From an uncultured delta proteobacterium (GTDB lineage: Bacteria > Desulfobacterota > Desulfobacteria > Desulfobacterales > UBA2156): a DNA stretch of 64,000 bases. The stretch spans positions 542,285 to 606,284 of the forward strand of contig CAVTQK010000009.1 of assembly GCA_963736855.1 (NCBI GenBank), read 5' to 3'. Shown here piece after piece: positions 22,364 through 41,090 of this stretch. The notes below the pieces were generated by a model. It had not been told where the DNA came from and did not search any database. It saw only the letters and a program-made list of their open reading frames with translations. Within the stretch, counting starts at the first letter, position 1. Every line of letters begins with the position of its first letter. The position numbers and the translations under genes were made by a program.

Positions 22364-25300
22364 ATGAACGTTTCACGCCGAGAGTTCATGCAGATTACCG
22401 GTGCCACGGCAGCGGGTCTTGCGGTGAGCGGCCTGGGGTTTGATCTTTCGCCGGTTCAATCCCACGCTCAGATGCTAAAGACCAAGTATGCCAAAGAGAC
22501 CATCACGATCTGCCCCTACTGCGGGGTGGGATGCGGGGCCATCGTGCATACCGCCAAAAGTGGGGCCGGCCGTGTCATCAACATCGAAGGGGATCCGGAC
22601 CATGTCATCAGCCGGGGATCCCTGTGCTCGAAGGGCTCTTCTCTGAAGCAGCTGGTGGAAAACGAAAACCGATTGCTGGAACCCATGTACCGGGCTCCGA
22701 ATTCAAAGGAATGGAAACCGGTGTCATGGGACTGGGCCATTGAAGAGATTGCCAAACGCGTCAAGGCCACACGGGACGCCACTTTTGAGGCTAAAAACGA
22801 CAAGGGGCAGACGGTCAACCGCACCACAGCCATCGCCTCGGTGGGCAGCGCCGCTTTGGACAATGAAGAGTGCTGGATCTACCAGGCCCTGCTGCGAGCT
22901 CTCGGGCTGGTATATATCGAACACCAGGCCCGTATCTGACACAGCGCCACGGTTGCGGCTCTGGCAGAGTCGTTCGGACGCGGCGCCATGACCAACCACT
23001 GGATTGATCTGAAAAACGCGGACTTCATTCTCATCATGGGAAGCAACGCCGCGGAAAACCACCCCATCTCTTTCAGATGGATCACCGAGGCCCAGAAAAA
23101 CGGCGCCACCCTCATCAATGTGGATCCACGTTTACCCGCACCTCCTCCAAGGCGGATATTTACGCTTCTTTGCGTTCCGGGACGGACATCGCCTTTTTGG
23201 GCGGGATGATCAAGTACATCCTGGACAATAAACTGTATTTTGAAGAATATATGCTCGATTATACCAACGCTTCTTTTATTGTAAACGATGCTTTTGGATT
23301 TTCCGACGGCCTCTTTGCCGGTTATGACGATAAAAAGCGCAGTTACGACAAAAGCAAGTGGGCTTTTGCTATGGACGAAAAGGGTGTTCCCAAGCGTGAC
23401 CCCAGCCTGAAAAATCCCCTATGTGTAATCAATCTGCTTAAAAAGCACTACGATCGCTATACGCTCAAGAAAGTATCAGAGGTCACCGGGACCCCGGAAG
23501 CCGATCTTTTGAAGGTTTACAAAGCTTACAGCGCCACCGGCAAAACCTGACAAGGCCGCCACTATCATGTACGCCATGGGATGGACCCAGCATACGGTGG
23601 GCGTCCAGAACATCCGCGCCATGTGCATCATTCAACTGCTGCTGGGCAACATGGGCATCGCGGGCGGCGGTGTGAATGCCCTGCGGGGTGAATCCAATGT
23701 GCAGGGCTCCACGGATCAAGGCTTGTTGTTCCACATCCTGCCCGGCTATCTGCCCACGCCGGCGGCCTCCATCGACTCCCTGACGGTTTACAAAGAGAAA
23801 AACACGCCCAAGAGCAACGATCCGCGTTCGGCCAACTGGTGGCAGAACCGGCCCAAGTACATCACCAGCCTGCTCAAGTCCTTTTTCGGAGACAAGGCTA
23901 CGGCAGAAAACGATTTCGGCTACAACTGGCTGCCAAAGGTCGACGACGGAAAGCCCTATTCCTGGCTGGATATCTTCGATGCCATGTACAACGGGAAGAT
24001 CAAGGGGTTTTTTGCCTGGGGCCAGAACCCGGCCTGCTCGGGCGCCAATTCCAACAAGACCCGCAAGGCCATGGCCAAGCTGGACTGGATGGTGAACGTC
24101 AATCTTTTTGACAATGAAACCGGCTCGTTCTGGAAGGGTCCGGGAATGGATCCATCGGCCATCAAGACCGAGGTATTCATGCTCCCGGCCTGCGTTTCCG
24201 TGGAAAAAGAAGGGATCTATCAGCAACTCGGGCCGCTGGATGCAGTGGCGCTACGAGGGACCCAAACCCTTAGGCAACAGCCGCCCCGATGGCGACATGA
24301 TCATGGAACTGGGTCTCAAGCTCAAGGAACTCTATGCCAAGGGCGGGGGGTTCCCGGATCCGATCCTCAACCTCAAGTGGGACTATTCAACCAATCATAA
24401 GTACGATCCCCACAAGGCGGCCAAGGAGATCAACGGCTACTGGCTCAAAGACAAAACCATCGGCGAGGTCACTTACAAGGCCGGCTCTCTCGTGGCGCCG
24501 GGATTTGCCCTGCTCCAGGCCGACGGCTCCACTTCCTGCGGCAACTGGATCTACTGCGGCAGCTATACGGACAAGGGGAACATGGCGGCCCGGCGGAGCC
24601 AGGAAGATGCACCCAACAAGATCGGCCTGTATCCCGCCTTTGCCTGGTGCTGGCCGGTGAACCGGCGGATCATCTACAACCGAGCTTCCTGCAATCCAAA
24701 AGGACAGCCGTATAATGAAAAGCGCTGGGTCGTCAAATGGGATGCTGAAGGAAAAAAATGGGTCGGCGATGTCCCGGATGGACCCTGGCCCCCGCTGCAA
24801 AACCCGGACGGCAGCCAGCGTGAGGACGGTCGTTATCCGTTTATCATGACAAAAGAAGGATTTGCTCAGATTTATGGCCCGGGCCTCAACGACGGGCCTT
24901 TCCCGGAACACTATGAGCCTCTGGAATGCCCGGTGGAGAAAAATGCATTCGGCAAACAGCTCATGAACCCCACGGCCCCGGTGTACGGCACCGATGCGGA
25001 TGCGCATTTTACCTGCGACCCGCGCTATCCCTATGTGTGCACTACCTATCGGGTATCCGAGCACTGGCAGACCGGGCTGATGACCCGGCCCCAGCCCTGG
25101 CTGCTGGAACTTCAGCCCCAGATGTTTGTGGAGATCAGCGAGGAGCTGGCTAAACTGAAAGGATTTAAAAACGGTGAACGGATCAAGGTGTCTTCAGCCC
25201 GCGGATCGGTGGAGTGTACGACCATCGTGACCAAGCGCTTTAAACCCTTTAAAATCAGCGGCACGGTGGTCCATGAAGTGGGGATTCCATGGCATTTCGG

Positions 25301-25421
25301 CTGGCGATGGCCCGACAGCGGCAAAGAGGAAAGTGCGAACCTGCTCACGCCGTCCACCGGTGATCCCAACACCCGGATCCCGGAAACCAAGGCCTTCATG
25401 GTCAACGTGGCCAAAATCTAA
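22364..25421 (+). CDS. fdhA: formate dehydrogenase catalytic subunit, Tat-exported, selenocysteine-containing; three frameshifts in this assembly
   Basis: Tat signal SRREFMQITGATAAGLAV. EHQARI[TGA 22937-22939]HSATVAALAESFGRGAMTNHW is the classic Sec context. Frame changes at a T-run near 23131, an A-run at 23542-23545 and an A/G-run at 24204-24214 rejoin ORFs 22988, 23077, 23567 and 24108. Confidence 0.9.
22940..22990 (+). promoter_or_regulatory. SECIS-like stem-loop region downstream of the fdhA UGA
   Basis: A hairpin can be drawn at 22940-22963 with loop CACGGUU. Folded by hand only. Confidence 0.45.
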
Positions 25422-27131: not shown

Positions 27132-27475
27132 CGATTTTACGGAAAACAGGCCAACCTTAAATCTTACCGGAAAATGGGACGTATCCCGATAATACCGCTA
27201 ATTCTCGAAAAAATGCGCTGGTTTTTCCAAAGTGTTTCCATATTTATTTTTGTTGTTTTTTTTTTATTCATATGTCATGTGCTCAAAACCGCTCGTTGCT
27301 CCTTTGAGCATTAAACGAGCGCTGTGCTCGAATTTCCAAGCGATGCGTGTAAACGCATGGAGGAGATGAAAGAGCCGCACGCAAAACTAAAAACGAGCCG
27401 ATCTCTCTTTTTCTTTTCAGCCAAAGCCTATTGATCACAACAGCAGTGGGAAGAACCTACATGAAGGAGGTGTCA

Positions 27476-28419
27476 ATGGACAAGGAACAGAGAAAATTTT
27501 ACGAAAGATTGGAAGGAAAAGGTGTCTCAAGAAGGGACTTCATGCGTTATTGCACCTTTTTAACCGCTACCATGGGGCTTTCCGCCGCCTATGTACCCAA
27601 GGTGGCGGAGGTGTTTGCGGCGCCCACGCAACGCCCCCCGGTGATCTGGCTTCATTTTGCCGAGTGCACCGGGTGCTCCGAGGCGGTTCTGCGTTCCACT
27701 TACCCGTACATCGACGATCTGGTGCTGGAGGTCCTCTCTTAGAATACCATGAAACCGTCATGGCGGCAGCGGGACAGCAGGCCGAAGACCAGCTTCATGC
27801 CTCGGTCAAGAAGTACGAAGGAAAATACATCTGTGTGGTGGAAGGGGCCATCGCCACCAAGTTTAACGGCGGTTATGGTAAGATTTCCGGACGCACCTTT
27901 CTGGAGATCGGAAAGGACGTCTGCAGCAAAGCTGCCGCGGTGATCTGCATCGGCGCCTGTTCTTCTTTCGGCGGGATTCAGACCGCCAAACCGAATCCGG
28001 GCGGATTTAAAGGGGTCGGAGAAGCCCTGGGCATTAAAACCCTAAACATTCCCGGATGTCCTCCCAATCCGGTCAATTTCGTCGGAACCGTGGTCAATTT
28101 CCTTCTTTTAGGGAAACTGCCGGCTTTAGACAAGTTAGGCCGGCCACTCTTTGCCTATGGGAAAACCATCCACGATCAATGTCCGAGAAGGTCCCATTTT
28201 GAAAACGAGGAATTCGTCACCGAGTTCGGTTCGCCGGAAGCGGCTATGGGATACTGCCTGTATAAGATGGGCTGTCGGGGACCCGAGACCTTCAATAATT
28301 GTCCCATCGCCAAGTTCAACGAAGGCACCAGCTTCCCCATCGAAGCCGGGCATCCTTGCATCGGGTGCAGCGAGCCCGATTTCTGGGACAAGATGACGCC
28401 GTTCTATAAAGAAATGTAG
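27476..28419 (+). CDS. hynB: periplasmic [NiFe] hydrogenase small subunit (Tat signal); one frameshift near 27739
   Basis: GGAGG-ATG at 27476. SRRDFMRYC Tat motif and ECTGCSEA. ...DLVLEVLS joins LEYHETVMAAAG when one T is added at 27739-27740. Confidence 0.88.
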
Positions 28420-28475: not shown

Positions 28476-30128
28476 ATGGGAAATAGAATCACCATTGATC
28501 CGATTACCAGAATAGAAGGCCACCTTCGCATTGAAGTAGAGGTGGCCGGAGGGAAAGTGGTCAACGCCTGGAGCAGCCCTCAGATGTTTCGGGGCATCGA
28601 ACTGATTCTGCTGGGCCGGGATCCCCGGGATGCCCATCATTTTGTGCAGCGCTCCTGCGGGGTCTGAACGTTGACCCATGCTCTGTCCTCGGTGAGGGCA
28701 GTCGAAGACGCGGTTAAAGTCAATATTCCCGACAACGTCAGGATTATCCGAAATCTGCTTCATGGTGCCCAGTTCCAACACGACCATATTGTCCACTTTT
28801 ATCATCTGCATGCCCTGGACTGGGTGGACATAGTCAGTGCCCTGAAAGCCGACCCTAAAGCCACCGCATCGCTTGCCGATACCGTCAGTAATGCCCCGGT
28901 GGGGGGTGCGGCCTATTTCAAAACCGTTCAACAAAGATTGAAGACTTTTGTGGACAGCGGCCAGCTGGGGCCCTTCGCCAACGCCTACTGGGGGCATCCC
29001 GCATACAAGCTCCCTCCGGAGGCGAACCTCATGGCCGCAGCTCACTATGTGGAGGCCCTGCGGATCCAGGCAAGGGCTGCACGGATGCATGCCATTTTCG
29101 GCGCCAAGAATCCACATCTTCAATCCCTGGTGGTGGGGGGTGTCACCTGTGTGGCGGACCTGACCCCGGATCGGATTGCCGAATTTCTCTACATCTGGAA
29201 GGAAACCCAAAGCTTCATAGAAAATGTATACATCCCGGATCTCCTCGCGGTAGCATCCTTTTACAAAGACTGGGGCGCCATCGGCGGAACCCAAAACTTT
29301 ATGGCTTGGGGTGATTTCCCGGAAACGGCCAAGGAGCCGGAGAGCCTGTACATGCCGCGGGGCGTCATTAAAAAGCGGGACCTGGCCGGTGTCGCCATGG
29401 CTAAACAAGAAGGGGTTACCGAGCATGTCAAGCGTTCCTGGTATACAGATGGAGATCCAAAGCATCCCTACAAAGGGGAGACCAAGCCGCTTCAGGAAAA
29501 TCCGGCCTACAAACCGGATGATGGCAAATACTCCTGGATGAAGGCTCCCCGGTATGACAATGAAGCCTGCGAAGTGGGACCATTGGCCCGTGTTTTGGTA
29601 GCCTATGCCAAGGGGCATGCCACTATTAAACCCCTGGTGGATCAGACCTGCCAGAAGCTGGGAATTCCCGTCACGGCCCTCTTCTCCACTTTAGGTCGGA
29701 CCGCAGCTCGGGCGCTGGAAACCGTGGCTATCGGCAAGGCCATGGAAGGATGGATCATGAAGTTGGTGGAAAACGTGAAGGGCGGCAACACCAAGACCTA
29801 CCAGGCCTGGGACTGGCCCAAGGAAGAAGCCATGGGCGTCGGGCTCAATGATGTTCCCCGGGGATCCCTCGGACACTGGGTTGTCATCGAAAAACAGAAA
29901 ATTAAAAACTATCAGTATGTGGTTCCCTCCACATGGAACTTGGGCCCACGATGCGGCAACAACAAAATGGGTCCCGTGGAAGAGGCGCTTATCGGCACAC
30001 CAGTGGCCGATCCCAAGCAGCCCCTGGAGGTATTGAGAACCGTTCACTCTTTCGACCCGTGTATAGCCTGCGGCGTCCACGTTATCGACCCGGATTCCAA
30101 TCAGGTATACAAAGTCAAAGCGTTATAA
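28476..30128 (+). CDS. hynA: [NiFe] hydrogenase large subunit with in-frame TGA (28665-28667) at the second Cys of RxCGxC
   Basis: [19 protein letters not shown]...FVQRSCGV[TGA][15 protein letters not shown]. ORFs 28476 and 28671 share one frame. C-terminal DPCIACGVH at 30054-30080. Confidence 0.85.
28683..28701 (+). promoter_or_regulatory. hairpin 15 nt downstream of the hynA TGA (possible SECIS)
   Basis: CTGTCCT-CGGTG-AGGGCAG: 7 bp including one G-U pair, with a GGU-containing loop. Confidence 0.35.
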
Positions 30129-30307: not shown

Positions 30308-33300
30308 ATGGCCAGTCGATATTCTCCGAGTCGGATTTACCAACACAGCGTCGAATCGATCTTGTACCACCCTAAAGCCACCTTGTTAGTGGTGGCGCTT
30401 TTCACCCTGTTTTTTGCCTGGCAAATACCCAACCTGAAAATCCGCACCTCCATTTATGATCTGGTGGTGGAAGACATCCCAGAAAGTGTGACCTACAAGG
30501 CTTTTCGAAAACTTTTCGGATCCGACGAAATCATTCGGATTGTCATCAAGGCAAAAGATATCCTGGATCCGATAACGTTTGAAAAGTTGGGCGGAATCGC
30601 TAAGGACTTTTCGAAGATCCCCGGGGTACGGCGGATCATCAGCCTCCCGGACATCAAGGCCGCGGTGGAGGCGGGGAGTCCGTGGGATCTCAAACGCTTT
30701 GCCGCCGTCCTTTCTCCTGTCGAGCTTTTTCAGAAAAACCTCATTTCGGCCGACCGCAGCGCCACAGCGATTACCCTGGTGCTTCAAATGGATGCGGACA
30801 AAGACGCCGTGATCCGGACGGTTGAGGAGCATATCGCCGGGGCGCCTAAAGATCTAACCCTGTACCAGATCGGGATGCCAGTGGTCTCAAACGCTTTAAC
30901 CCGATATACCCAGAGGGATTTCTACCTGCTTCCCCCGCTTACCCTTGCCGTCATGACCGTAATCCTGTTTTTCTTGTATCCCACCTTCCTGCTCATGCTC
31001 ATTCCCATTTCTTGTGTTTTGATCGCGATGGTCCTCACGTTCGGCCTCATGGCCATGATCCAGATCCCCCTATCCATGCTTACCATGATTGTTCCGGTTT
31101 TTCTCATCGCCGTCGGAATGGCGTATTGCGTTTATATCACCTCGGAATTCACCGAGGCGTTAAACAGGCTGCCTTCGCCGGCTGCTGCGGCCCTGGCCAC
31201 TTTTTCGAGCATGACGCTTCCCACGATGGTGGCGGTGCTCACCACCGTGGTGGGGATAGCTTCCCTTTTAATCAACCGGATTCAGGCCATTCGGGAGTTT
31301 GCCGTATTCGGCTCAGTCGGGATCATCATCCTCATGATTCTGGCCTTAACGTTTTTGCCCGCAGCCTTTGCCCTGGTGCCGTCCCGAAACGGGAGGCGCC
31401 TTGAGAGCACCCGGGCGGCAAGGGCGGCCCATTGGTTCACGAACAAGATCGCTCATATCAACATCCACCGACAGAGTATTTCTCTTCCTATACTCGGCGG
31501 AGTGGCGCTTTTTTGTATCATCGGGATCTTCAGGATCCAGGTGGAGACAAACCCGGTGGAGTTTTTCAAAAAGGATGCCCCGGTAAGCCGCCACTTTCAC
31601 GACATCGCCCGTCACCTGTCCGGGAGCTTTCCAGTCCATGTAGCTGTTTCTGCCAGGGAAGAAGATGCATTTGAAGACCCGAAGATGCTCAAGGAGATAG
31701 AGCGCCTTCAAAAAGATCTGGAAAAACTTCAGGGTGTGGATAAAAGCCTCTCTCTGATCGACTACATGAAGCTGGTCAATTACGCCCTCAACCAATTCGA
31801 TCCCAAATACTACACCCTTCCGGAACAGGACTTCGAAGTCAGGATGATTTTGAACAATTACAAGGTCATGCTCGGGGAGGACATGCTGTACGGATTCGTG
31901 AACAGGGGTTTTTCAAAAGTCAACCTCATGTTGTTGACGCATCTTTCCAGTTCCAAAGAGTTTCTTGAGATCAAAAAACAGATCTTAGAACACGTGGTGC
32001 AACAGTGCCCCAAAGCGATTTCCGCCGAGGTGACCGGTATCGGCGTGGTCATTTCGGCCAGCAGCGACATCCTGACTACCGGGCAGGTCAAGAGCCTTTC
32101 CCTCAGCATGGGCTTGATCTTTTCAATGATGTTCATACTGTTTTTATCCTTCAAGGTGGGGTTGATCGCCATTGTCCCGAACCTGTTTCCCATCGTGGTC
32201 AACTTCGGGGTCATGGGATGGCTGGGGATAAAGCTCTCCGCAGCCACGAGTCTGATTGCCAGCATCGCCATCGGCCTGGCGGTGGACGATACCATTCATT
32301 ACCTGGTCTGTTTCAACCGGGAATTCAAGAAATGCCTGAACGATGAAACGGCGCTTCGGGAGACGCTAAAACGGGTGGGGCTTTCCATGGTTTTCACCTC
32401 CATCATCATCAGTTCAGGGTTCTCGGTCCTGATGGCGTCCAATTTCGGGCCGACATCCCTTTTCGGATTCCTTATGGTCGTCACCATGATTTCGGCGCTG
32501 GCAGGGGATCTCCTCATTCTTCCTTCCCTGATGCTCCACGTGGAACTGGTGACTTTGTGGGATTTGATCCGATTGAAGCTGGGAAAAGATCCCCAGGAAG
32601 GGATTCCGTTGTTCAAGGGTCTTTCCCGATCCCGGATCCATCATATCATTATGGCCGGATCGCTGAAGGCTTTTAACCCGGGAGATGTAATCTGCCGTAA
32701 AGGGGATCAAAGCGATTTTATGTACACCGTCATTTCGGGGGGGCTGGACGTGATCGAGCCCATGGCGGAGGATCGAAACGGAAGCTACGGCGGAGACCGG
32801 GTCATCAGCCATATCCGCGTAGGAGATGTGGTGGGGGAGATGGGACTGTTCAGAGGAATGCCGCGTTCGGCCACCGTGGTCGCCACTTCGGAAGGAGAAT
32901 TGCTCCAGATCAACTGGAAGATGATTCGACGCCTTCAGTTTCTATATCCAGGGACTGCCAATAAATTTTTCCATAATCTCGTGACGATTCTTTGCGACCG
33001 GCTGGAACACATCACCCAGTGCTATGTCGCCGAATGCTTCATCGATGAAGAAAGCGGGGTATTCAATTCCAGAGGGTTTTTTGAGGCCCTTCAGAGACAG
33101 CTTCATCTGGCTTTAAGACATGGGATGTCCTTATCTCTGTGTTTCCTGAAAGTCCGCTTCGACCCGGATGGTTTCGGAAAGGATTCCCAGGTCAAAGATC
33201 GGATCCTGCAGCTTGCAGGCCGGATCATGTCTCAAATCATTAGAAGAAGCGATGTGGCGGGAAGGATAGATGGACAGACATTCGGCCTGATTCTCATCGG

Positions 33301-33508
33301 ATCTTCGGCAAAGAATTCCTTGGAAACCTGCCGGCGGATCCAGGCACGTTTTGAAACCGAAGCCCGGGAGAAAGAAGACTTTCCGGCGGGATTGATCTTC
33401 GGAATCTCCGATGGTAAATTAGACTCCAACACACAGGCTTCGAATCTGATCCAGGAGGCCAAGGAAGCATTGAAAAAGGCCGGCGCCCGGCAGGGTTTTG
33501 TGCAATAA
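30308..33508 (+). CDS. MMPL/RND-superfamily transporter fused to a cyclic-nucleotide-binding domain and a degenerate GGDEF domain
   Basis: 1066 aa. Two 6-TM bundles with large loops (MMPL/HpnN-like). cNMP-binding motif GEMGLFRGMPRSATVVA. C-terminal GGDEF-like fold with DGQTF in place of GGDEF. Confidence 0.85.
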   Translation: MASRYSPSRIYQHSVESILYHPKATLLVVALFTLFFAWQIPNLKIRTSIYDLVVEDIPESVTYKAFRKLFGSDEIIRIVIKAKDILDPITFEKLGGIAKDFSKIPGVRRIISLPDIKAAVEAGSPWDLKRFAAVLSPVELFQKNLISADRSATAITLVLQMDADKDAVIRTVEEHIAGAPKDLTLYQIGMPVVSNALTRYTQRDFYLLPPLTLAVMTVILFFLYPTFLLMLIPISCVLIAMVLTFGLMAMIQIPLSMLTMIVPVFLIAVGMAYCVYITSEFTEALNRLPSPAAAALATFSSMTLPTMVAVLTTVVGIASLLINRIQAIREFAVFGSVGIIILMILALTFLPAAFALVPSRNGRRLESTRAARAAHWFTNKIAHINIHRQSISLPILGGVALFCIIGIFRIQVETNPVEFFKKDAPVSRHFHDIARHLSGSFPVHVAVSAREEDAFEDPKMLKEIERLQKDLEKLQGVDKSLSLIDYMKLVNYALNQFDPKYYTLPEQDFEVRMILNNYKVMLGEDMLYGFVNRGFSKVNLMLLTHLSSSKEFLEIKKQILEHVVQQCPKAISAEVTGIGVVISASSDILTTGQVKSLSLSMGLIFSMMFILFLSFKVGLIAIVPNLFPIVVNFGVMGWLGIKLSAATSLIASIAIGLAVDDTIHYLVCFNREFKKCLNDETALRETLKRVGLSMVFTSIIISSGFSVLMASNFGPTSLFGFLMVVTMISALAGDLLILPSLMLHVELVTLWDLIRLKLGKDPQEGIPLFKGLSRSRIHHIIMAGSLKAFNPGDVICRKGDQSDFMYTVISGGLDVIEPMAEDRNGSYGGDRVISHIRVGDVVGEMGLFRGMPRSATVVATSEGELLQINWKMIRRLQFLYPGTANKFFHNLVTILCDRLEHITQCYVAECFIDEESGVFNSRGFFEALQRQLHLALRHGMSLSLCFLKVRFDPDGFGKDSQVKDRILQLAGRIMSQIIRRSDVAGRIDGQTFGLILIGSSAKNSLETCRRIQARFETEAREKEDFPAGLIFGISDGKLDSNTQASNLIQEAKEALKKAGARQGFVQ

Positions 33509-33619: not shown

Positions 33620-34153
33620 ATGACGAAGCCCCGCATCATGATCCTCGGGATCGGAAACCTTCTCTTTTCAGATGAAGGGTTCGGTGTCCGCGTCCTTCAA
33701 CGTCTGATGGAAGGTTACGAGTTTCCGGAAAACGTCTCTTTGGTGGACGGGGGGGTGCTCGGATTGAATCTATTGGGCGTGATTTCCGAGGCGGATCATC
33801 TGATCGTAGTGGATGCTATCCGGAACCACGGAAGACCGGGAACCCGCTACCGCCTGGAAGGAAAAGCCATCCCGGAACGGGTGCGGGCGAAAAATTCTTT
33901 GCACCAGGTCGATTTCCTGGAAGCCCTGACCTTATGTCAGGTCTTGGATACGAAGGTCCCGGAAACCGTGATCCTGGGTGTGGAACCGGACGACATTGAG
34001 ACGGCGAGCATCGAATTAACCCCGATTGTGGCCGAACAGATTGAACCGATCCTGAAAATGGTCTTTGCCGAACTCCAACGCCTGAACGTCGCTTTTTCAA
34101 AAAGGACAAAAAATGTGCCTTGCGATCCCCTCGAAAATTGTGAGTATCGATAA
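33620..34153 (+). CDS. hydrogenase maturation endopeptidase (HyaD/HybD family)
   Basis: ILGIGNLLFSDEGFGVRV...VDGGVLGLNLL...LIVVDAI. Confidence 0.88.
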   Translation: MTKPRIMILGIGNLLFSDEGFGVRVLQRLMEGYEFPENVSLVDGGVLGLNLLGVISEADHLIVVDAIRNHGRPGTRYRLEGKAIPERVRAKNSLHQVDFLEALTLCQVLDTKVPETVILGVEPDDIETASIELTPIVAEQIEPILKMVFAELQRLNVAFSKRTKNVPCDPLENCEYR

Positions 34154-34382: not shown

Positions 34383-36662
34383 ATGGAAAACGAGCGTCTG
34401 GCCCGGGATGTCATCGTAGAAGGGATCGTCCAGGGGGTCGGATTCAGGCCCTTTGTGTTCCAGCTGGCCAAGCGCCTGGAACTTTACGGTGAGGTTGCCA
34501 ACACTGCAGATGGAGTGGCCATCCATCTGGAAGGCACATCCGAAGCCATCCGGACATTTGTCAAGGATCTTGCCGAAAAGAGCCCTCCGCTTTCGTATAT
34601 CACCGGCATTTCCGTTTCAGAAGGAAAATTAAACGGTTTTACATCCTTTGGCATTACGCCCAGCCGCCCTGATATCCACAAGTCGACGCTGATTTCACCC
34701 GATGCGGCGATTTGTGATGCATGCCTGAAGGAGCTCTTCACACCCGAAGACCGGCGATATCTTTATCCGTTTATCAACTGCACGCATTGCGGCCCCCGAT
34801 ACACCATCATCGACGATATTCCCTATGACCGGCCGAACACCTCCATGAAGCATTTCGTCATGTGTGAAAAGTGCCGGGCCGAATACGACGATCCGACCGA
34901 CCGACGATTCCATGCACAACCCAATGCCTGTCCGGCCTGCGGCCCTCATGTTTTTTTGCACGATGCGAAAGGCTCCCGAATCCTTTCGGCCGATCCGATC
35001 CGGGAGGCGATTTTGCTTTTAAAGCAGGGGCACATTGTGGCGGTGAAGGGCCTGGGAGGATTTCATCTGGCGGTGGATGCCACCCGATCCGATGCGGTGA
35101 TACGCCTGAGAAAGCGGAAAGGACGTGAAGAAAAGCCTTTTGCAGTGATGTCCATGGACCTGGAAAAGATTTCAACCTATGCTGAGGTTTCGCCTGAGGA
35201 GCATCAACTTCTGACTTCTTCCCAACGACCGATTGTTTTGCTGAAAAAACGGGAGCCGCATCCATTGGCCGAAGCGGTTTCCCCGGAGAACGCCTATTTT
35301 GGTGTCATGCTTCCCTACACCCCTCTCCATTACCTGTTACTCGACTCCGGTTTTCTAGCGTTGGTCATGACGAGCGGCAACTTGAGCGAAGAGCCCATCG
35401 CCATCGACAATCTGGAAGCCTTCGAACGCCTCGGCGGGATCGCCGATTATTTTCTTGTCCACAACCGGGATATCTATTTGCGCAGCGATGATTCCATCGT
35501 GAGACACGCCGCTGATGCCACCCGGATACTGCGACGCTCCCGGGGATTTGTCCCCAGGCCGGTCTTCCTCAGGGACCGGCAGCCCCAGGTGCTGGCCTGC
35601 GGCGCCGAGTTAAAAGTCACCGCCTGTCTCACCAAAGGAAACCAGGCATTTTTAAGCCAGCACATCGGGGACATGGAAAATCCGACAACTTACGCGTTTT
35701 TCAAGCAGACGGTGTCGCACCTGGAACGCATCCTGGACATCCATCCCGAAATCGTCGCCTACGATCTGCATCCGGATTACCTGAGTACCCGGTATGCCCT
35801 CGAAGAACGAGAATCCCAAAGCCGGATCGCCGTGCAGCATCATCATGCCCATATCGTCAGCTGCATGGCCGAAAACCGGATCGACGGTCCGGTCATCGGG
35901 CTGGCCTTTGATGGGACCGGATACGGTACAGACGGTACCATCTGGGGCGGAGAAGTCCTTTTGGCAGACGAAAAGGCCTTTCAGCGATTGGCATTCCTGG
36001 ACCCTGTTCCCATGCCTGGCGGGGAAGCGGCCATCCGGGAGCCCTGGCGGATGGCGGTAAGCTATATTGTGGAAGCCTTCGGGACGGATTTTCCCATTCA
36101 AGAGATTCCGGCTCTTAGATCCCTGGAACCCAAGGCGATGCGGACGGTTCTGCAGATGATCCAAAAACGGGTCCGGTGCCCCATGACCTCCAGTTTGGGA
36201 AGACTTTTCGACGGTGTGGCCTATATTCTGGGTTTAAAACAAACGGTACGTTTCGAAGGACAGGCGGCGATGGCTTTGGAGATGGCGGCCAAGGAGGGGG
36301 TAAAGGAGTTTTATGATTGCCGGTGTATGGCGGAAATTCCCATCAAGGTACCCACCGGACCGATCATCGAAGGGGTTGTTAGGGATCTGCGGGATGGAGT
36401 TCCGACCGAGGTCATCAGCGGGAAATTTCACTCCACGGTGATTGAGTTCTTTTCTAGGGTGTGTGACGCCGTTGCCACACAAACCGGGGTGCGGCGTGTG
36501 GCCCTCAGCGGAGGCGTTTTCCAGAACGCCATCCTCCTGGAAGGTTTCATCACTTCCCTGTCCCGGCGTGGGTTTGAAGTCTATACCCACTCCCAGGTTC
36601 CGACAAACGATGGGGGTATCGCCCTGGGCCAAGCCGTGGTGGCCGCAGCCTCGGTGTCATGA
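34383..36662 (+). CDS. hypF: carbamoyltransferase HypF
   Basis: Acylphosphatase domain GIVQGVGFRPFV, zinc fingers CDACLKE...CTHCGPRYT, and YrdC and Kae1-like domains. Confidence 0.93.
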   Translation: MENERLARDVIVEGIVQGVGFRPFVFQLAKRLELYGEVANTADGVAIHLEGTSEAIRTFVKDLAEKSPPLSYITGISVSEGKLNGFTSFGITPSRPDIHKSTLISPDAAICDACLKELFTPEDRRYLYPFINCTHCGPRYTIIDDIPYDRPNTSMKHFVMCEKCRAEYDDPTDRRFHAQPNACPACGPHVFLHDAKGSRILSADPIREAILLLKQGHIVAVKGLGGFHLAVDATRSDAVIRLRKRKGREEKPFAVMSMDLEKISTYAEVSPEEHQLLTSSQRPIVLLKKREPHPLAEAVSPENAYFGVMLPYTPLHYLLLDSGFLALVMTSGNLSEEPIAIDNLEAFERLGGIADYFLVHNRDIYLRSDDSIVRHAADATRILRRSRGFVPRPVFLRDRQPQVLACGAELKVTACLTKGNQAFLSQHIGDMENPTTYAFFKQTVSHLERILDIHPEIVAYDLHPDYLSTRYALEERESQSRIAVQHHHAHIVSCMAENRIDGPVIGLAFDGTGYGTDGTIWGGEVLLADEKAFQRLAFLDPVPMPGGEAAIREPWRMAVSYIVEAFGTDFPIQEIPALRSLEPKAMRTVLQMIQKRVRCPMTSSLGRLFDGVAYILGLKQTVRFEGQAAMALEMAAKEGVKEFYDCRCMAEIPIKVPTGPIIEGVVRDLRDGVPTEVISGKFHSTVIEFFSRVCDAVATQTGVRRVALSGGVFQNAILLEGFITSLSRRGFEVYTHSQVPTNDGGIALGQAVVAAASVS

Positions 36663-36675
36663 AACGGAGCAGGCG

Positions 36676-37770
36676 ATGATGCACGTGAATGGTAGAAATG
36701 CCTTCGAAAGTGCGGATCTGGCCGCAAAACTGGCCGGGCAGATCTTCCGGGAGAGTAAGCGACGCGTCAACCTAATGGAGGTCTGCGGGACCCACACCAT
36801 GTCCATATTCAGATCCGGAATCCGTTCGCTTCTCCCGGAATCCATCCGTTTGATATCAGGCCCGGGGTGCCCGGTCTGTGTGACCGACCAGAAAGAGATC
36901 GACACCTTTATGGCTCTGACACAAATCGACGATGTCATCATCACCACCTTCGGGGATCTGGTCCGGGTTCCAGGGACACAAACCTCTCTGCAGGAGGAGC
37001 GGGCAAAAGGGAGGGATATCCGGGTGGTCTATTCCACGATGGACGCTCTTGAGATCGCCGTGAAAAACCCGTTTAAAAATGTGGTGTTCCTGGGAGTCGG
37101 GTTCGAGACGACGGCACCGACGGTTGCCGCTGCGATCCTGGCCGCTGAAAAACAAAAGACGGAAAATTTTTTTGTGGTCTCCGCCCACAAACTGGTGCCC
37201 CCCGCCCTGGAAACGCTTCTTGCATCCGGCACCGTCAAGATCGACGGATTCATCCTGCCGGGGCACGTATCGGTCATCATCGGCAAGAAAGCCTATTTCC
37301 ACGTGGTTCAGGAACACCGGATTCCCAGTGTCATCTGTGGATTTGAGCCGACGGATATCCTCCAGGGGATCCTCATGCTGGTGCGCCAGGTGGAAGCCGG
37401 CAAGGCTGAACTCGAAAACGCCTATACCCGCGTGGTGACCGATGATGGGAATCCCAAGGCCGTTGGGATTCTCCGAGAGGTCTTTGAAACAACGGACGCT
37501 CCTTGGCGGGGTATCGGCATCATCCCGAAAAGCGGGCTTCGGATCCGGAAGGGCTTCGCTCGGTTTGATGCCCAAAAAGCGTTTTCGGTGATGGTCCCCG
37601 AATCGAAGCCCCCCAAAGGGTGCGCCTGCGGCGCAGTCTTGACGGGTGTCCTTACTCCGCCGCAGTGCCCTCTCTTTCGTAAGGTTTGCACCCCGGAGGA
37701 TCCGGTGGGGCCGTGCATGGTTTCCAGCGAAGGGACCTGTGCGGCCTATTATCGGTATCATTTTGATTAG
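36676..37770 (+). CDS. hypD: hydrogenase formation protein HypD
   Basis: MEVCGTHT, GPGCPVCV and C-terminal Cys-rich motifs. ATG 36676 has GGAGCAGG upstream. The ORF-track start 36442 overlaps hypF. Confidence 0.92.
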   Translation: MMHVNGRNAFESADLAAKLAGQIFRESKRRVNLMEVCGTHTMSIFRSGIRSLLPESIRLISGPGCPVCVTDQKEIDTFMALTQIDDVIITTFGDLVRVPGTQTSLQEERAKGRDIRVVYSTMDALEIAVKNPFKNVVFLGVGFETTAPTVAAAILAAEKQKTENFFVVSAHKLVPPALETLLASGTVKIDGFILPGHVSVIIGKKAYFHVVQEHRIPSVICGFEPTDILQGILMLVRQVEAGKAELENAYTRVVTDDGNPKAVGILREVFETTDAPWRGIGIIPKSGLRIRKGFARFDAQKAFSVMVPESKPPKGCACGAVLTGVLTPPQCPLFRKVCTPEDPVGPCMVSSEGTCAAYYRYHFD

Positions 37771-38649: not shown

Positions 38650-41090
38650 TTACTTTTTTTCCAGCAGCGCCATGGCCTGAGCAATCTCCTTTTGCGTAAC
38701 GGTTTTACGCAATTGCTCCACGCGGGTCATGACTTCGGCAAAGCGCATGCCTTCGGCGGCGCTGATCCACTCCAGCTGCAGCCGCTCGGGGCGCAGGCCG
38801 CGCTTTTCCATCTTCTTGCGCATCTTGCTCCACGCGCTTGTCGGTCCAGTGGTTGGCATTGATGTAGTGGCAGTCGCCGATATGGCAGCCGCTGACCAGG
38901 ATCACCGGCGCGCCCTTTTTGAAAGCCGTGCCAGATGAAATTCTTCGTCCACCCGGCCCGAGCACATGGTGCGGATCAGGCGGACATTGGGCGGGTACTG
39001 CAGCCGCGAAACACCGGCATAGTCCGCGCCGGCATATGAACACCAGTTGCAGGCAAAGGTGAGAATCTTGTCCGGCGGGTTGTTCGCCAGCATGGCGTCG
39101 ATCTGCTCGTAGATCTGGGCGTCGGTGAAATGGTTCATGGTGATGGCGCCGAAGGGGCACTCGGCTGCGCAGGTGCCGCAGCCGGCTGCAGGCGGCCGTG
39201 GCCACCTGGGCCGGGATCTTCTTCTTGGGGTCCACGGTGATGGCGTTGTAGGGGCACACCTCGGCGCACTTGCCGCAGGCCTTGCACAGCTTCGGATGAC
39301 CTCGGAGGTGATGGCTTCGGCCGTGATCTGGTCGGCCTGCATCAGGCGGATGGCGCGCACCGCCGCGGCCGAGGCCTGGGTGACGCTCTCCTTGATGTCC
39401 TTGGGCCCTTCGGCGCAGCCGGCATAGAATACGCCGCGCGTGGCGGCATCCACGGGCTGCAGCTTGGGATGGGCTTCCAGGAAAAAACCGTCGGAGGTCA
39501 ACTGCAACCCGAGCATCTCCTGCAGCTTCTGGGTGTCGGGGGCCGGTTCGATGCCGATGGCCAGCACCAGCATATCCAGCTCGTAGTATTCAGAGCGCCG
39601 CTGGCCGATGTTCTCCACGGCCACGCGCAGGCTGCCGTCGGGCAGCTCTTCCACATGGCCCGGCAACCCGCGCACATAGTGCACGCCCAGGCGCCGGCTG
39701 CGGGTGTAGAGATCTTCGAACCCTTTGCCGAAGGCGCGGATGTCGATGTAGAAGACCTTGACCTCCATATCCGGGTAGTGCTCCTTGAGCACCAGGGTGC
39801 TTTTGATGGTGTTCATGCAGCAGACGTTGGAGCAGTAGGACTTGCCGCGCCGGGCCGAGCGGGAGCCCACGCATTGGATGAATCCGATGGATTTGGGCGG
39901 CTTGCGGTCCGTGGGGCGCAGCAGATGGCCCTGGGTGGGGCCGCCGGCATTGACCAGACGTTCGAACTCCAGGCTGGTGAGCACGTTTTCAAAGCGGGTG
40001 TAACCGTATTCGTCCAGAATGCGCGGATCATGGGGCGCAAGGCCGGTGGCCACCACGATGGTGCCCACCGCTCGGTCAAGGTCTGATCGGACATGTGAAA
40101 ATCGATGCACTTCTTCTCGCAGGCTTCCAGACATTTGCTGCACACCGCGGGATTGTGGCCCAGGCACTCGTGGGGATTGATCACATAGGCCGACGGCACG
40201 GCCTGGGGAAAGGGCGAGTAAATAGCGCGCCGCGAGGAGAGGCCCAGGTTGAACTCGTCGGGCCGCACCACCGGGCATACCTTGGCGCATTCGCCGCAGG
40301 CGGTGCACTCCTTTTCATCGACATAGCGGGCCTTTTTGACGATCTGAACGTCGAAGTTGCCCACATAGCCTTTGACATCCACCACTTCGCTCATGGTGTG
40401 AATCTTGATCCGGGGATGCCGACCGGCATCCGTCATCTTCGGACCCAGGATTCAGATGGAGCAGTCCATGGTGGGAAAGGTCTTGTCCAGCTGGGCCATG
40501 ACGCCGCCGATGGAGGGCTGCTTTTCCACCAGCACCACTTCATAGCCGTTGTCGGCCATGTCCAGGGCCGACTGGATGCCGGCGACGCCGCCGCCGATCA
40601 CCAGGGCGCGCTGGGTCATGGGCATCTTGGCCTCGGTCAGCGGCTTGCAGGCGGCGCACACGGGCAACGGCCATCTTCACCAGATCCAGGGCCTTGACGG
40701 TGGCGGCCTGCGGTTCCTTCATGTGGACCCAGCTGCACTGCTCGCGCAGGTTGGCCATCTCCAGCAGATAGGGATTGAGGCCGGCGGCTGACCAGCATCT
40801 GGCGAAAGGTGGGCTCGTGCAGCCGCGGCGAGCAGGAAGCCGATCACGATGCGGTTCAGACCGTTGGTTTCAATGTCTTCGCGGATTTCGCGCTGGCCCG
40901 GTTCGCTGCACGCATAGCCGATGCCCTTGGCCACGACCACATCGGGCAGACTGGGCCGCCTGCGGCCGCTACGCCGTCGCAATCCACGGTCTGGGCGATG
41001 TTCAGGCCGCAGTGGCACACATAGACGCCGATGCGGGGCTCGTTCGCTGGAGGCTGCGCCGGGTTTGATAGAAGTAATTGGCAGTGTCAT
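38650..41090 (-). pseudogene. hdrA: heterodisulfide reductase subunit A fused to an MvhD domain; Sec codon plus at least 8 frameshifts in this assembly
   Basis: Traced across frames: MTLPIT..EPRIGVYVCHCGLNIAQ.. VVVAKGIGYACSEPGQ.. [10 protein letters not shown].. [12 protein letters not shown].. [20 protein letters not shown].. [11 protein letters not shown][TGA]ILGPKM.. FIQCVGSRS.. C-terminal Mvh[35 protein letters not shown]. Confidence 0.8.
40415..40430 (-). promoter_or_regulatory. SECIS-like hairpin 21 nt downstream of the hdrA UGA
   Basis: The minus strand reads GATGCC-GGTC-GGCATC (perfect 6-bp stem, GGUC loop) after TGA 40454-40452. Confidence 0.6.

Follow-up and report, generated by a model that had tools for sequence, protein, structure and literature searches.

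We find that hynA, a gene in a 64,000-nucleotide (nt) stretch of DNA from an uncultured delta proteobacterium (contig CAVTQK010000009.1, positions 542,285 to 606,284; hereafter the window), very likely encodes the large subunit of a periplasmic, twin-arginine translocation (Tat)-exported uptake hydrogenase resembling that of Desulfovibrio vulgaris Miyazaki F (DvMF), in which codon 64, an in-frame UGA, is programmed for selenocysteine (Sec) by a hairpin downstream of it in the mRNA. Four observations carry this reading: the position of the UGA within the active-site motif, its conservation across species, the nucleotide-level constraint on the hairpin together with its loss where the codon is TGC, and the presence of two further Sec genes in the same window.

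The TGA is the sole internal stop in the 551 codons that run from the ATG at 28476 to the stop at 30126-30128, and it closes an N-terminal motif that reads R-S-C-G-V-U across residues 59-64. NCBIfam models assign HynA to the hydrogenase large subunit family, and with Cys put at codon 64 its best structural match is the DvMF large subunit, chain 1h2a_L (E=3.3e-210, full length). This alignment is gapless from query residue 4 (chain residue 24) to query residue 107 (chain residue 127), placing codon 64 at residue 84 of 1h2a_L, the second Cys of RTCGVC, and because the alignment to solved structures is gapless we take the role of residue 64 as settled. The ligands of the NiFe centre are thus specified by three Cys codons and one UGA, in place of the usual four Cys. 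In characterised [NiFeSe] enzymes, the C-terminal motif, DPUxxCxxH, carries Sec where its terminal Cys would be; hynA has Cys at that canonical position, and the C-terminal motif is all-Cys wherever we found it among related genes. Its motif His is followed by a 15-residue tail of the type removed by a maturation protease. From structural knowledge, the second Cys of the N-terminal motif is a ligand that bridges Ni and Fe (Takano et al. 2026, Evans et al. 2021). A first-pass annotation of the window, made from the letters alone, had already placed the TGA at the second Cys of an N-terminal RxCGxC motif and noted the all-Cys DPCIACGVH; both are borne out here, the former by the alignment to residue 84 of 1h2a_L, and its read-through peptide across the TGA matches our translation. 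Its listing of the gene as two open reading frames (ORFs) is right in that the second ORF starts at a TTG at 28671, one codon past the TGA, and needs correction in that the frame is open throughout.

We compared this codon across 80 species-representative genomes encoding the closest HynA relatives (76-91% identity), mostly metagenome-assembled genomes (MAGs) of Desulfobacterales, with Desulfosarcina, Desulfonema, Ca. Desulfaltia, Desulfococcaceae HSG9, Eth-SRB1 and the Olavius Delta1 and Delta3 symbionts among the taxa represented. The column of the hynA UGA is TGA in 75 of these genomes, including the Olavius symbiont orthologs (L023 and L035), and TGC in the other five. The first-pass annotation had proposed an alignment of orthologous large subunits as a check on its own reading, and in that alignment the TGA does recur at this column together with a conserved downstream hairpin. 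The same codon is visible in protein collections from NCBI, JGI, ENA and Logan, where the 63-residue N-terminal fragment of HynA gave 814 matches: the best 120, which we inspected, all end at R-x-C-G-V or a close variant, 106 of them are exactly 63 amino acids long, and all are annotated as stand-alone proteins, one bearing the name ‘nickel-dependent hydrogenase large subunit’. Because these fragments end at R-x-C-G-V, gene callers must have stopped at the same codon, and because the best 120 matches all end at the UGA, public annotation splits this selenoprotein gene systematically, so that it is under-counted or mis-classified in hydrogenase surveys. A metagenome scan for a TGA plus the hairpin yielded at least 120 contigs, with a hydrogenase motif directly upstream in all 120 listed. 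As a separate observation on the codons flanking the UGA, the Val codon just before it (28662-28664) is GTC in 71/73 orthologs despite four-fold degeneracy, and the codon right after it is ACG in 53/73, a bias that may reflect a local context effect on UGA decoding.

The hairpin, CTGTCCTCGGTGAGGGCAG, starts 15 nt past the TGA with its stem at +18 to +36, and lies in codons 70-76 of hynA. Across 73 TGA orthologs, synonymous codon entropy is zero at codons +7 to +11 after the UGA and very low at +12 and +13. Specifically, Ser is encoded by TCC in 67/67 and by TCG in 73/73 cases, Val by GTG in 69/69, Arg by AGG in 73/73 and Ala by GCA in 70/72, whereas other four- and six-fold degenerate codons nearby have entropies of 1.5-2.3 bits, and the three other Arg codons 2.1-2.3 bits. 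Stem positions are paired in 99% of cells across the TGA orthologs, and the apical loop, compared in 74 sequences, is GGU in 70 and GGC in 4. Bacterial selenocysteine insertion sequences (bSECIS) are defined by a G at apical-loop position 1 or 2 (PMC13582414), and since the G residues at both positions (G27 and G28) are invariant, the hynA hairpin conforms to this definition. The consensus structure has a folding free energy of -8.6 to -10.6 kcal/mol in TGA genes vs +0.1 to +8.0 kcal/mol in the TGC orthologs that we folded (L003, L033, L066 and L072); in these four the consensus hairpin cannot form, and a near-identical peptide is written in other codons (e.g. CTT TCT TCG GTA AGA GCG). The fifth TGC gene, L042, was outside the folding set and likewise has differing codons. 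Judged by these sequence features, we assign the hairpin as a bacterial SECIS. Its position 15 nt past the TGA is as the first-pass annotation had it, and the constraint in orthologs indicates that it serves the Sec codon; the location in that drawing stands, and the structure is better drawn as eight base pairs closed by a GGU triloop.

All five TGC genes (L003, L033, L042, L066 and L072) encode Cys at the column of the UGA and have lost the hairpin codons. A distance tree that took in four of them (L003, L033, L066 and L072) scatters these genes, each nested among TGA genes, and because they lie scattered inside TGA clades we read Sec as the ancestral state, maintained by purifying selection and lost to Cys independently at least four times. 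One of them, L003 (2515-4164), is the closest relative of the window gene, with 91% amino acid identity. The motif region of L003, PLFTQRSCGVCTQTHYLAS, is locally divergent and resembles a patch from another subclade, possibly through recombination.

Two further genes in the window, fdhA and hdrA, have in-frame TGAs, both at classic Sec positions. The fdhA hairpin, GCGGCUCU-GGC-AGAGUCGU at 22955-22973, equals that of hynA in offset, stem length and loop size; the hdrA hairpin, GGAUGCC-GGUC-GGCAUCC at 40431-40414, lies 4 nt further out than the other two. A GGU-containing loop had been proposed as common to the hairpins of all three genes, and this is so for hdrA, with GGUC, and not for fdhA, with GGC. 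Because fdhA and hdrA carry Sec codons in the same window, the source organism is expected to decode Sec, and its Sec machinery is inferred from these two genes. Both genes have other features of note: fdhA (22364-25421) is predicted to be periplasmic, with the Tat signal RREFMQ, and its frame shifts three times from ~23100 to 24250, as fits an assembly prone to indels; hdrA, of the HdrA2 type (38902-40676, minus strand), contains its Sec in a CxxU motif, DCSIU, and has at least one frameshift downstream, near 39900-40300.

Several points weigh against the reading of hynA as a Sec gene. Folded as a single sequence, its hairpin is not significant (z = -1.18). Covariation is seen at only two of the eight pairs, as compensatory double changes from C-G to U-A (L047 and L068) and from U-G to G-U (L029), the hairpin being nearly invariant. 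Rfam gave no SECIS-like family in the window at the gathering threshold or in 28600-28800 at a permissive one, although whether Rfam holds a suitable model is uncertain. None of selA, selB, selC, selD or a tRNA-Sec was found in the 64-kb window, in which ~30 ORFs were annotated. The small-subunit gene hynB has one base fewer at 27735-27742, reading TCT-TAG vs TCTCTG, TCCCTG or TCCTTG in six relatives; this 1-nt deletion is most likely an assembly indel, and a genuine deletion would leave this copy of the enzyme non-functional. Finally, the presence of selenium in the HynA polypeptide is deduced from the nucleotide sequence, and some Desulfobacterales possess a means of reading UGA as Cys, considered below. 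Because the single-sequence fold was not significant, we relied on comparative evidence, which is overwhelming and within which the suppression of synonymous change and the loss of the hairpin in TGC orthologs are more informative than covariation, the hairpin being nearly invariant.

The alternative offered by the first-pass annotation, which called the assembly error-prone, was that the TGA arose from TGC or TGT, either as a wrong base in the sequencing or assembly or by a recent mutation that inactivated the gene; on this view the gene is truly Cys-type or a pseudogene. The assembly does contain several frame errors (hynB lacks 1 nt, fdhA changes frame three times and hdrA does so at least once), yet these defects are indels, unlike the substitution that would be needed here, and the same base recurs in 75 independent species genomes and, together with the hairpin, in at least 120 contigs from metagenomes. 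The window also retains the hairpin with its TGA-specific codons (e.g. AGG for Arg), which would be unexpected in a Cys-type gene, and the remainder of hynA is intact; the recurrence of TGA plus hairpin refutes the error explanation, to which we give next to no credence. We find it just as hard to credit that the UGA is a true stop and that termination and re-initiation yield two polypeptides (63 and ~485 amino acids) with a split active site. This model would account for the TTG one codon past the TGA and for the two ORFs reported by ORF callers, but the TTG is not conserved, codon +2 being TAC or TAT in 64/73 orthologs, there is no conserved start codon or ribosome-binding site, and on these grounds we rejected it. 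A true stop would moreover remove a ligand of Ni and Fe, and the pattern of constraint suits an RNA hairpin with a GG loop rather than an initiation region.

A further alternative concerns the identity of the inserted residue: the UGA could be read as Cys, wholly or under Se limitation, by a SelC*-type tRNA-Cys(UCA) with a second SelB-like factor acting on the same hairpin, so that the mature enzyme would, for part of the time at least, be a normal [NiFe] hydrogenase with four Cys ligands. Genes for such a system (selC* for tRNA-Cys(UCA), selB* and cysS*) exist in a subgroup of Desulfobacterales that includes Desulfococcus biacutus and Desulfonema limicola, and opal suppression with Cys was demonstrated in E. 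coli (Mukai et al. 2017); Takano et al. 2026 name Cys decoding as a caveat for in-silico Sec calls, and MAGs of Desulfonema and Desulfococcaceae fall within our TGA clade. Against this, every selC*-bearing genome also had the full Sec machinery (Mukai et al. 2017), and no selC* gene was found in the 64-kb window. A TGC codon would suffice for Cys and make a costly SECIS unnecessary, yet TGA and SECIS are kept in 75/80 species and reversions are only scattered. We therefore regard decoding as Cys as improbable, and retain Sec as the residue encoded at position 64.

Features of the window, with the UxxU loci found in metagenomes (positions of the window unless a locus is named)
Feature	Coordinates	Strand	Remarks
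fdhA Sec codon and hairpin	22937..22973	+	TGA 22937-22939; motif EHQARI-U-HSATVAAL; TIGR01553 formate dehydrogenase alpha
hynB, [NiFe] hydrogenase small subunit	27461..28419	+	Tat signal SRRDFMRY; frame broken at ~27739/27740
hynA, group-1 periplasmic [NiFe] hydrogenase large subunit	28476..30128	+	550 residues, predicted Sec at residue 64
UGA, predicted selenocysteine codon	28665..28667	+	second Cys of RxCGxC, DvMF Cys84, Ni-Fe bridging ligand
Predicted bacterial SECIS hairpin CUGUCCUC-GGU-GAGGGCAG	28683..28701	+	8-bp stem, GGU apical loop
C-terminal Ni-binding motif DPCIACGVH	30054..30080	+	all Cys
HyaD/HybD-family hydrogenase maturation endopeptidase	33620..34153	+	TIGR00140 159.7 bits, cutoff 151.8
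hypF, carbamoyltransferase	34383..36662	+	TIGR00143 841.9 bits
hypD, hydrogenase formation protein	36697..37770	+	TIGR00075 474.7 bits, from residue 86 of ORF 36442-37770; start approximate
hdrA Sec codon and hairpin	40414..40454	-	TGA 40454-40452; motif TMDCSI-U-ILGPKM; NF040770 HdrA2
UxxU loci (L086, L103, L114, L122, L123, L126, L133, L134, L145, L151, L174)	e.g. L114:11682-11725		

The partner subunit and the neighboring genes point to the type of hydrogenase. With its frame repaired and its start codon picked by eye, HynB matches TIGR00391 (hydA) at 409.6 bits and aligns end-to-end with the DvMF small subunit 1h2a_S (E=9.6e-116), gap-free across the repaired join. Models for the canonical selenium enzymes score well below their cutoffs (407.5 bits vs 780 for the HysA model NF045518, and 249.5 vs 470 for the NiFeSe small subunit NF045520), and NiFeSe chains in the PDB match HynA far more weakly than standard NiFe chains do. 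The HynB residue aligned to the Pro of the DvMF ‘NWP’ motif is also Pro; a Pro here denotes a [3Fe-4S] medial cluster, whereas a Cys in its place denotes the [4Fe-4S] cluster of HysAB. The HynB alignment, the sub-cutoff NiFeSe scores and the retained Pro are the basis on which we classify the enzyme as a DvMF-like (group 1b-type) soluble periplasmic HynAB whose predicted Sec was acquired independently of group 1a. Like group 1b enzymes, it combines a small subunit bearing a Tat signal with a large subunit that is extended at its C-terminus, and a HyaD/HybD protease gene accompanies them; both subunits are close in sequence to the D. vulgaris MF and D. gigas enzymes.

The maturation genes are adjacent to hynA and syntenic, which favors the Sec reading: a protease homolog lies downstream of hynA in 69/80 related loci, and hypF is present in 48/80. 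HypF is the source of the CN ligands at the NiFe centre. Most relatives have the protease gene directly after hynA; in the window the two are separated by a gene at 30308-33508 for a 1066-residue fusion of an HAE3/MMPL RND transporter, a cyclic-nucleotide-binding domain and GGDEF, an insertion shared by the subclade of the window (L001-L005) and some others, 18/80 loci in all.

Following the established bacterial Sec pathway, a ribosome reaching the UGA at 28665 would meet SelB-GTP-Sec-tRNA(Sec) tethered by the hairpin at 28683-28701, and Sec would be inserted at codon 64 in place of termination. The apical-loop G residues of bacterial SECIS elements bind SelB. We infer Se incorporation and its dependence on SelB from the features described above, and likewise the bridging geometry: by alignment to solved structures, the Sec64 selenolate would replace Cys84 (DvMF numbering) in the pair of ligands bridging Ni and Fe, while the C-terminal motif would remain all-Cys; HypF, HypD and the neighboring HybD-type protease would presumably mature the enzyme. 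In the oxidised DvMF enzyme, Cys81 and Cys84 can join in a disulfide, and we speculate that a selenenylsulfide in its place might be more readily reduced. In the engineered E. coli Hyd-1 C79U variant, activity was 13% (the best of four variants) and the Km for H2 was lowered, and O2 tolerance was not improved (Evans et al. 2021, PMC8020662). Because Hyd-1 C79U gained no O2 tolerance, the benefit of Sec64, by analogy, is probably different from the O2 tolerance of canonical [NiFeSe] enzymes.

Eleven of the 120 metagenome contigs listed have TGA at both N-terminal Cys positions (UxxU; R-[T/V]-U-G-V-U-T-M-T-H) together with the same hairpin, and the eight complete UxxU genes group as one monophyletic branch inside the CxxU family. 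Takano et al. 2026 (PMC13582414) call UXXU previously unrecognised for Group 4; we found no report of UXXU in Group 1 in the literature, where it is apparently unreported. On balance we favor, with some reserve, the wider view that CxxU, with a bridging selenolate, is the ancestral and selectively maintained state of the main Desulfobacterales periplasmic uptake hydrogenase clade, within a natural CxxC/CxxU/UxxU series. If so, the clade would take in the Olavius worm symbionts and the MAG named Eth-SRB1, and its allelic series, with CxxC from at least four independent reversions, CxxU in the majority and UxxU nested within it, would offer a direct test of bridging vs terminal Se.

What is known of Se in hydrogenases stems from Sec as a terminal, proton-accepting Ni ligand. 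We found no study in the literature of a native enzyme with a bridging selenolate at the NiFe site, and data for this position come so far from the engineered E. coli variant alone; a native Ni-Fe-bridging Se enzyme would test whether Se tunes the metal-metal core, substrate affinity or recovery from oxidative damage. The point that seems under-appreciated is scale, as CxxU predominates in its clade, which appears to provide many sediment Desulfobacterales, and gutless-worm symbionts too, with their standard periplasmic enzyme for H2 uptake; for that reason its Se dependence would bear on H2 cycling and trace-element limitation. We consider the interest of the system moderate, in that it appears biochemically uncharacterised and is both widespread and systematically mis-annotated.

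Comparison with known systems places hynA between several of them. Both subunits find their best structural relatives among HynAB enzymes of group 1b (DvMF, 1h2a; D. gigas, 2frv), with which they have in common a Tat signal, a C-terminal extension and a protease of HybD type, but in the window gene Cys84 is replaced by a predicted Sec and the mRNA carries a SECIS embedded in the coding region. HysAB of group 1a (Desulfomicrobium baculatum, 1cc1; D. vulgaris Hildenborough, 2wpn) is likewise a periplasmic group-1 enzyme with one Sec ligand to Ni, a UGA and a bSECIS, but the Sec of HysA is the terminal Ni ligand in DPUxxCxxH, whereas that of hynA would be N-terminal, in the bridging position, with DPCIACGVH at the other end. 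The genome paper of D. autotrophicum HRM2 describes one periplasmic [NiFeSe] HysAB and does not state the position of its Sec. As in E. coli fdhF, the SECIS lies within the coding region as a stem-loop that immediately follows the UGA and has G residues in its loop, but the spacing is 15 nt vs ~11 nt in E. coli, and the hynA hairpin has a GGU triloop and no evident bulged U. E. coli Hyd-1 C79U (Evans et al. 2021) is a group-1 enzyme with Sec at the same ligand position by motif order, and differs in its artificial UAG/EF-Tu insertion and in being an O2-tolerant group 1d enzyme. The CXXU, UXXC and UXXU variants of Group 4 [NiFeSe] hydrogenases (Takano et al. 2026) resemble our sequences in their N-terminal Sec, a SECIS G at loop position 1 or 2, scattered switching between Sec and Cys, and loss of SECIS features in Cys-type relatives; those enzymes are membrane-bound, energy-converting and rare (~0.2%), whereas the window enzyme is a periplasmic Group 1 hydrogenase whose Sec form predominates in its clade.

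The closest counterpart is the CXXU class of Group 1 itself. The first-pass annotation held that Sec at this position would be an undescribed active-site variant, and this does not hold: a hydrogenase alpha subunit (‘FrhA’) with a novel Sec in a CxxU motif was reported from the Olavius symbiont metagenome (Zhang & Gladyshev 2007), and papers citing Baltazar et al. 2011 credit that study with further cases. According to Takano et al. 2026 (PMC13582414), these are two sequences of Group 1 in which the Sec of an N-terminal CXXU motif is predicted to bridge Ni and Fe; Evans et al. 2021 (PMC8020662) mention ‘purported examples’ of a substituted bridging Cys and write the position as C579. These two citing papers disagree on the same source, C579 belonging to the C-terminal motif and CXXU being N-terminal; the sequences analysed here support the N-terminal position. 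We found no biochemical characterisation of a CXXU Group 1 enzyme in the accessible literature. With its predicted Sec at the second N-terminal Cys, and with the Olavius orthologs L023 and L035 in the same TGA clade, hynA belongs with this class, which has been known in silico since 2007-2011 and to which the window gene is an addition; the difference is one of number, with two sequences cited in that literature vs 75/80 of the closest species genomes, at least 120 protein clusters and at least 120 metagenome contigs here.

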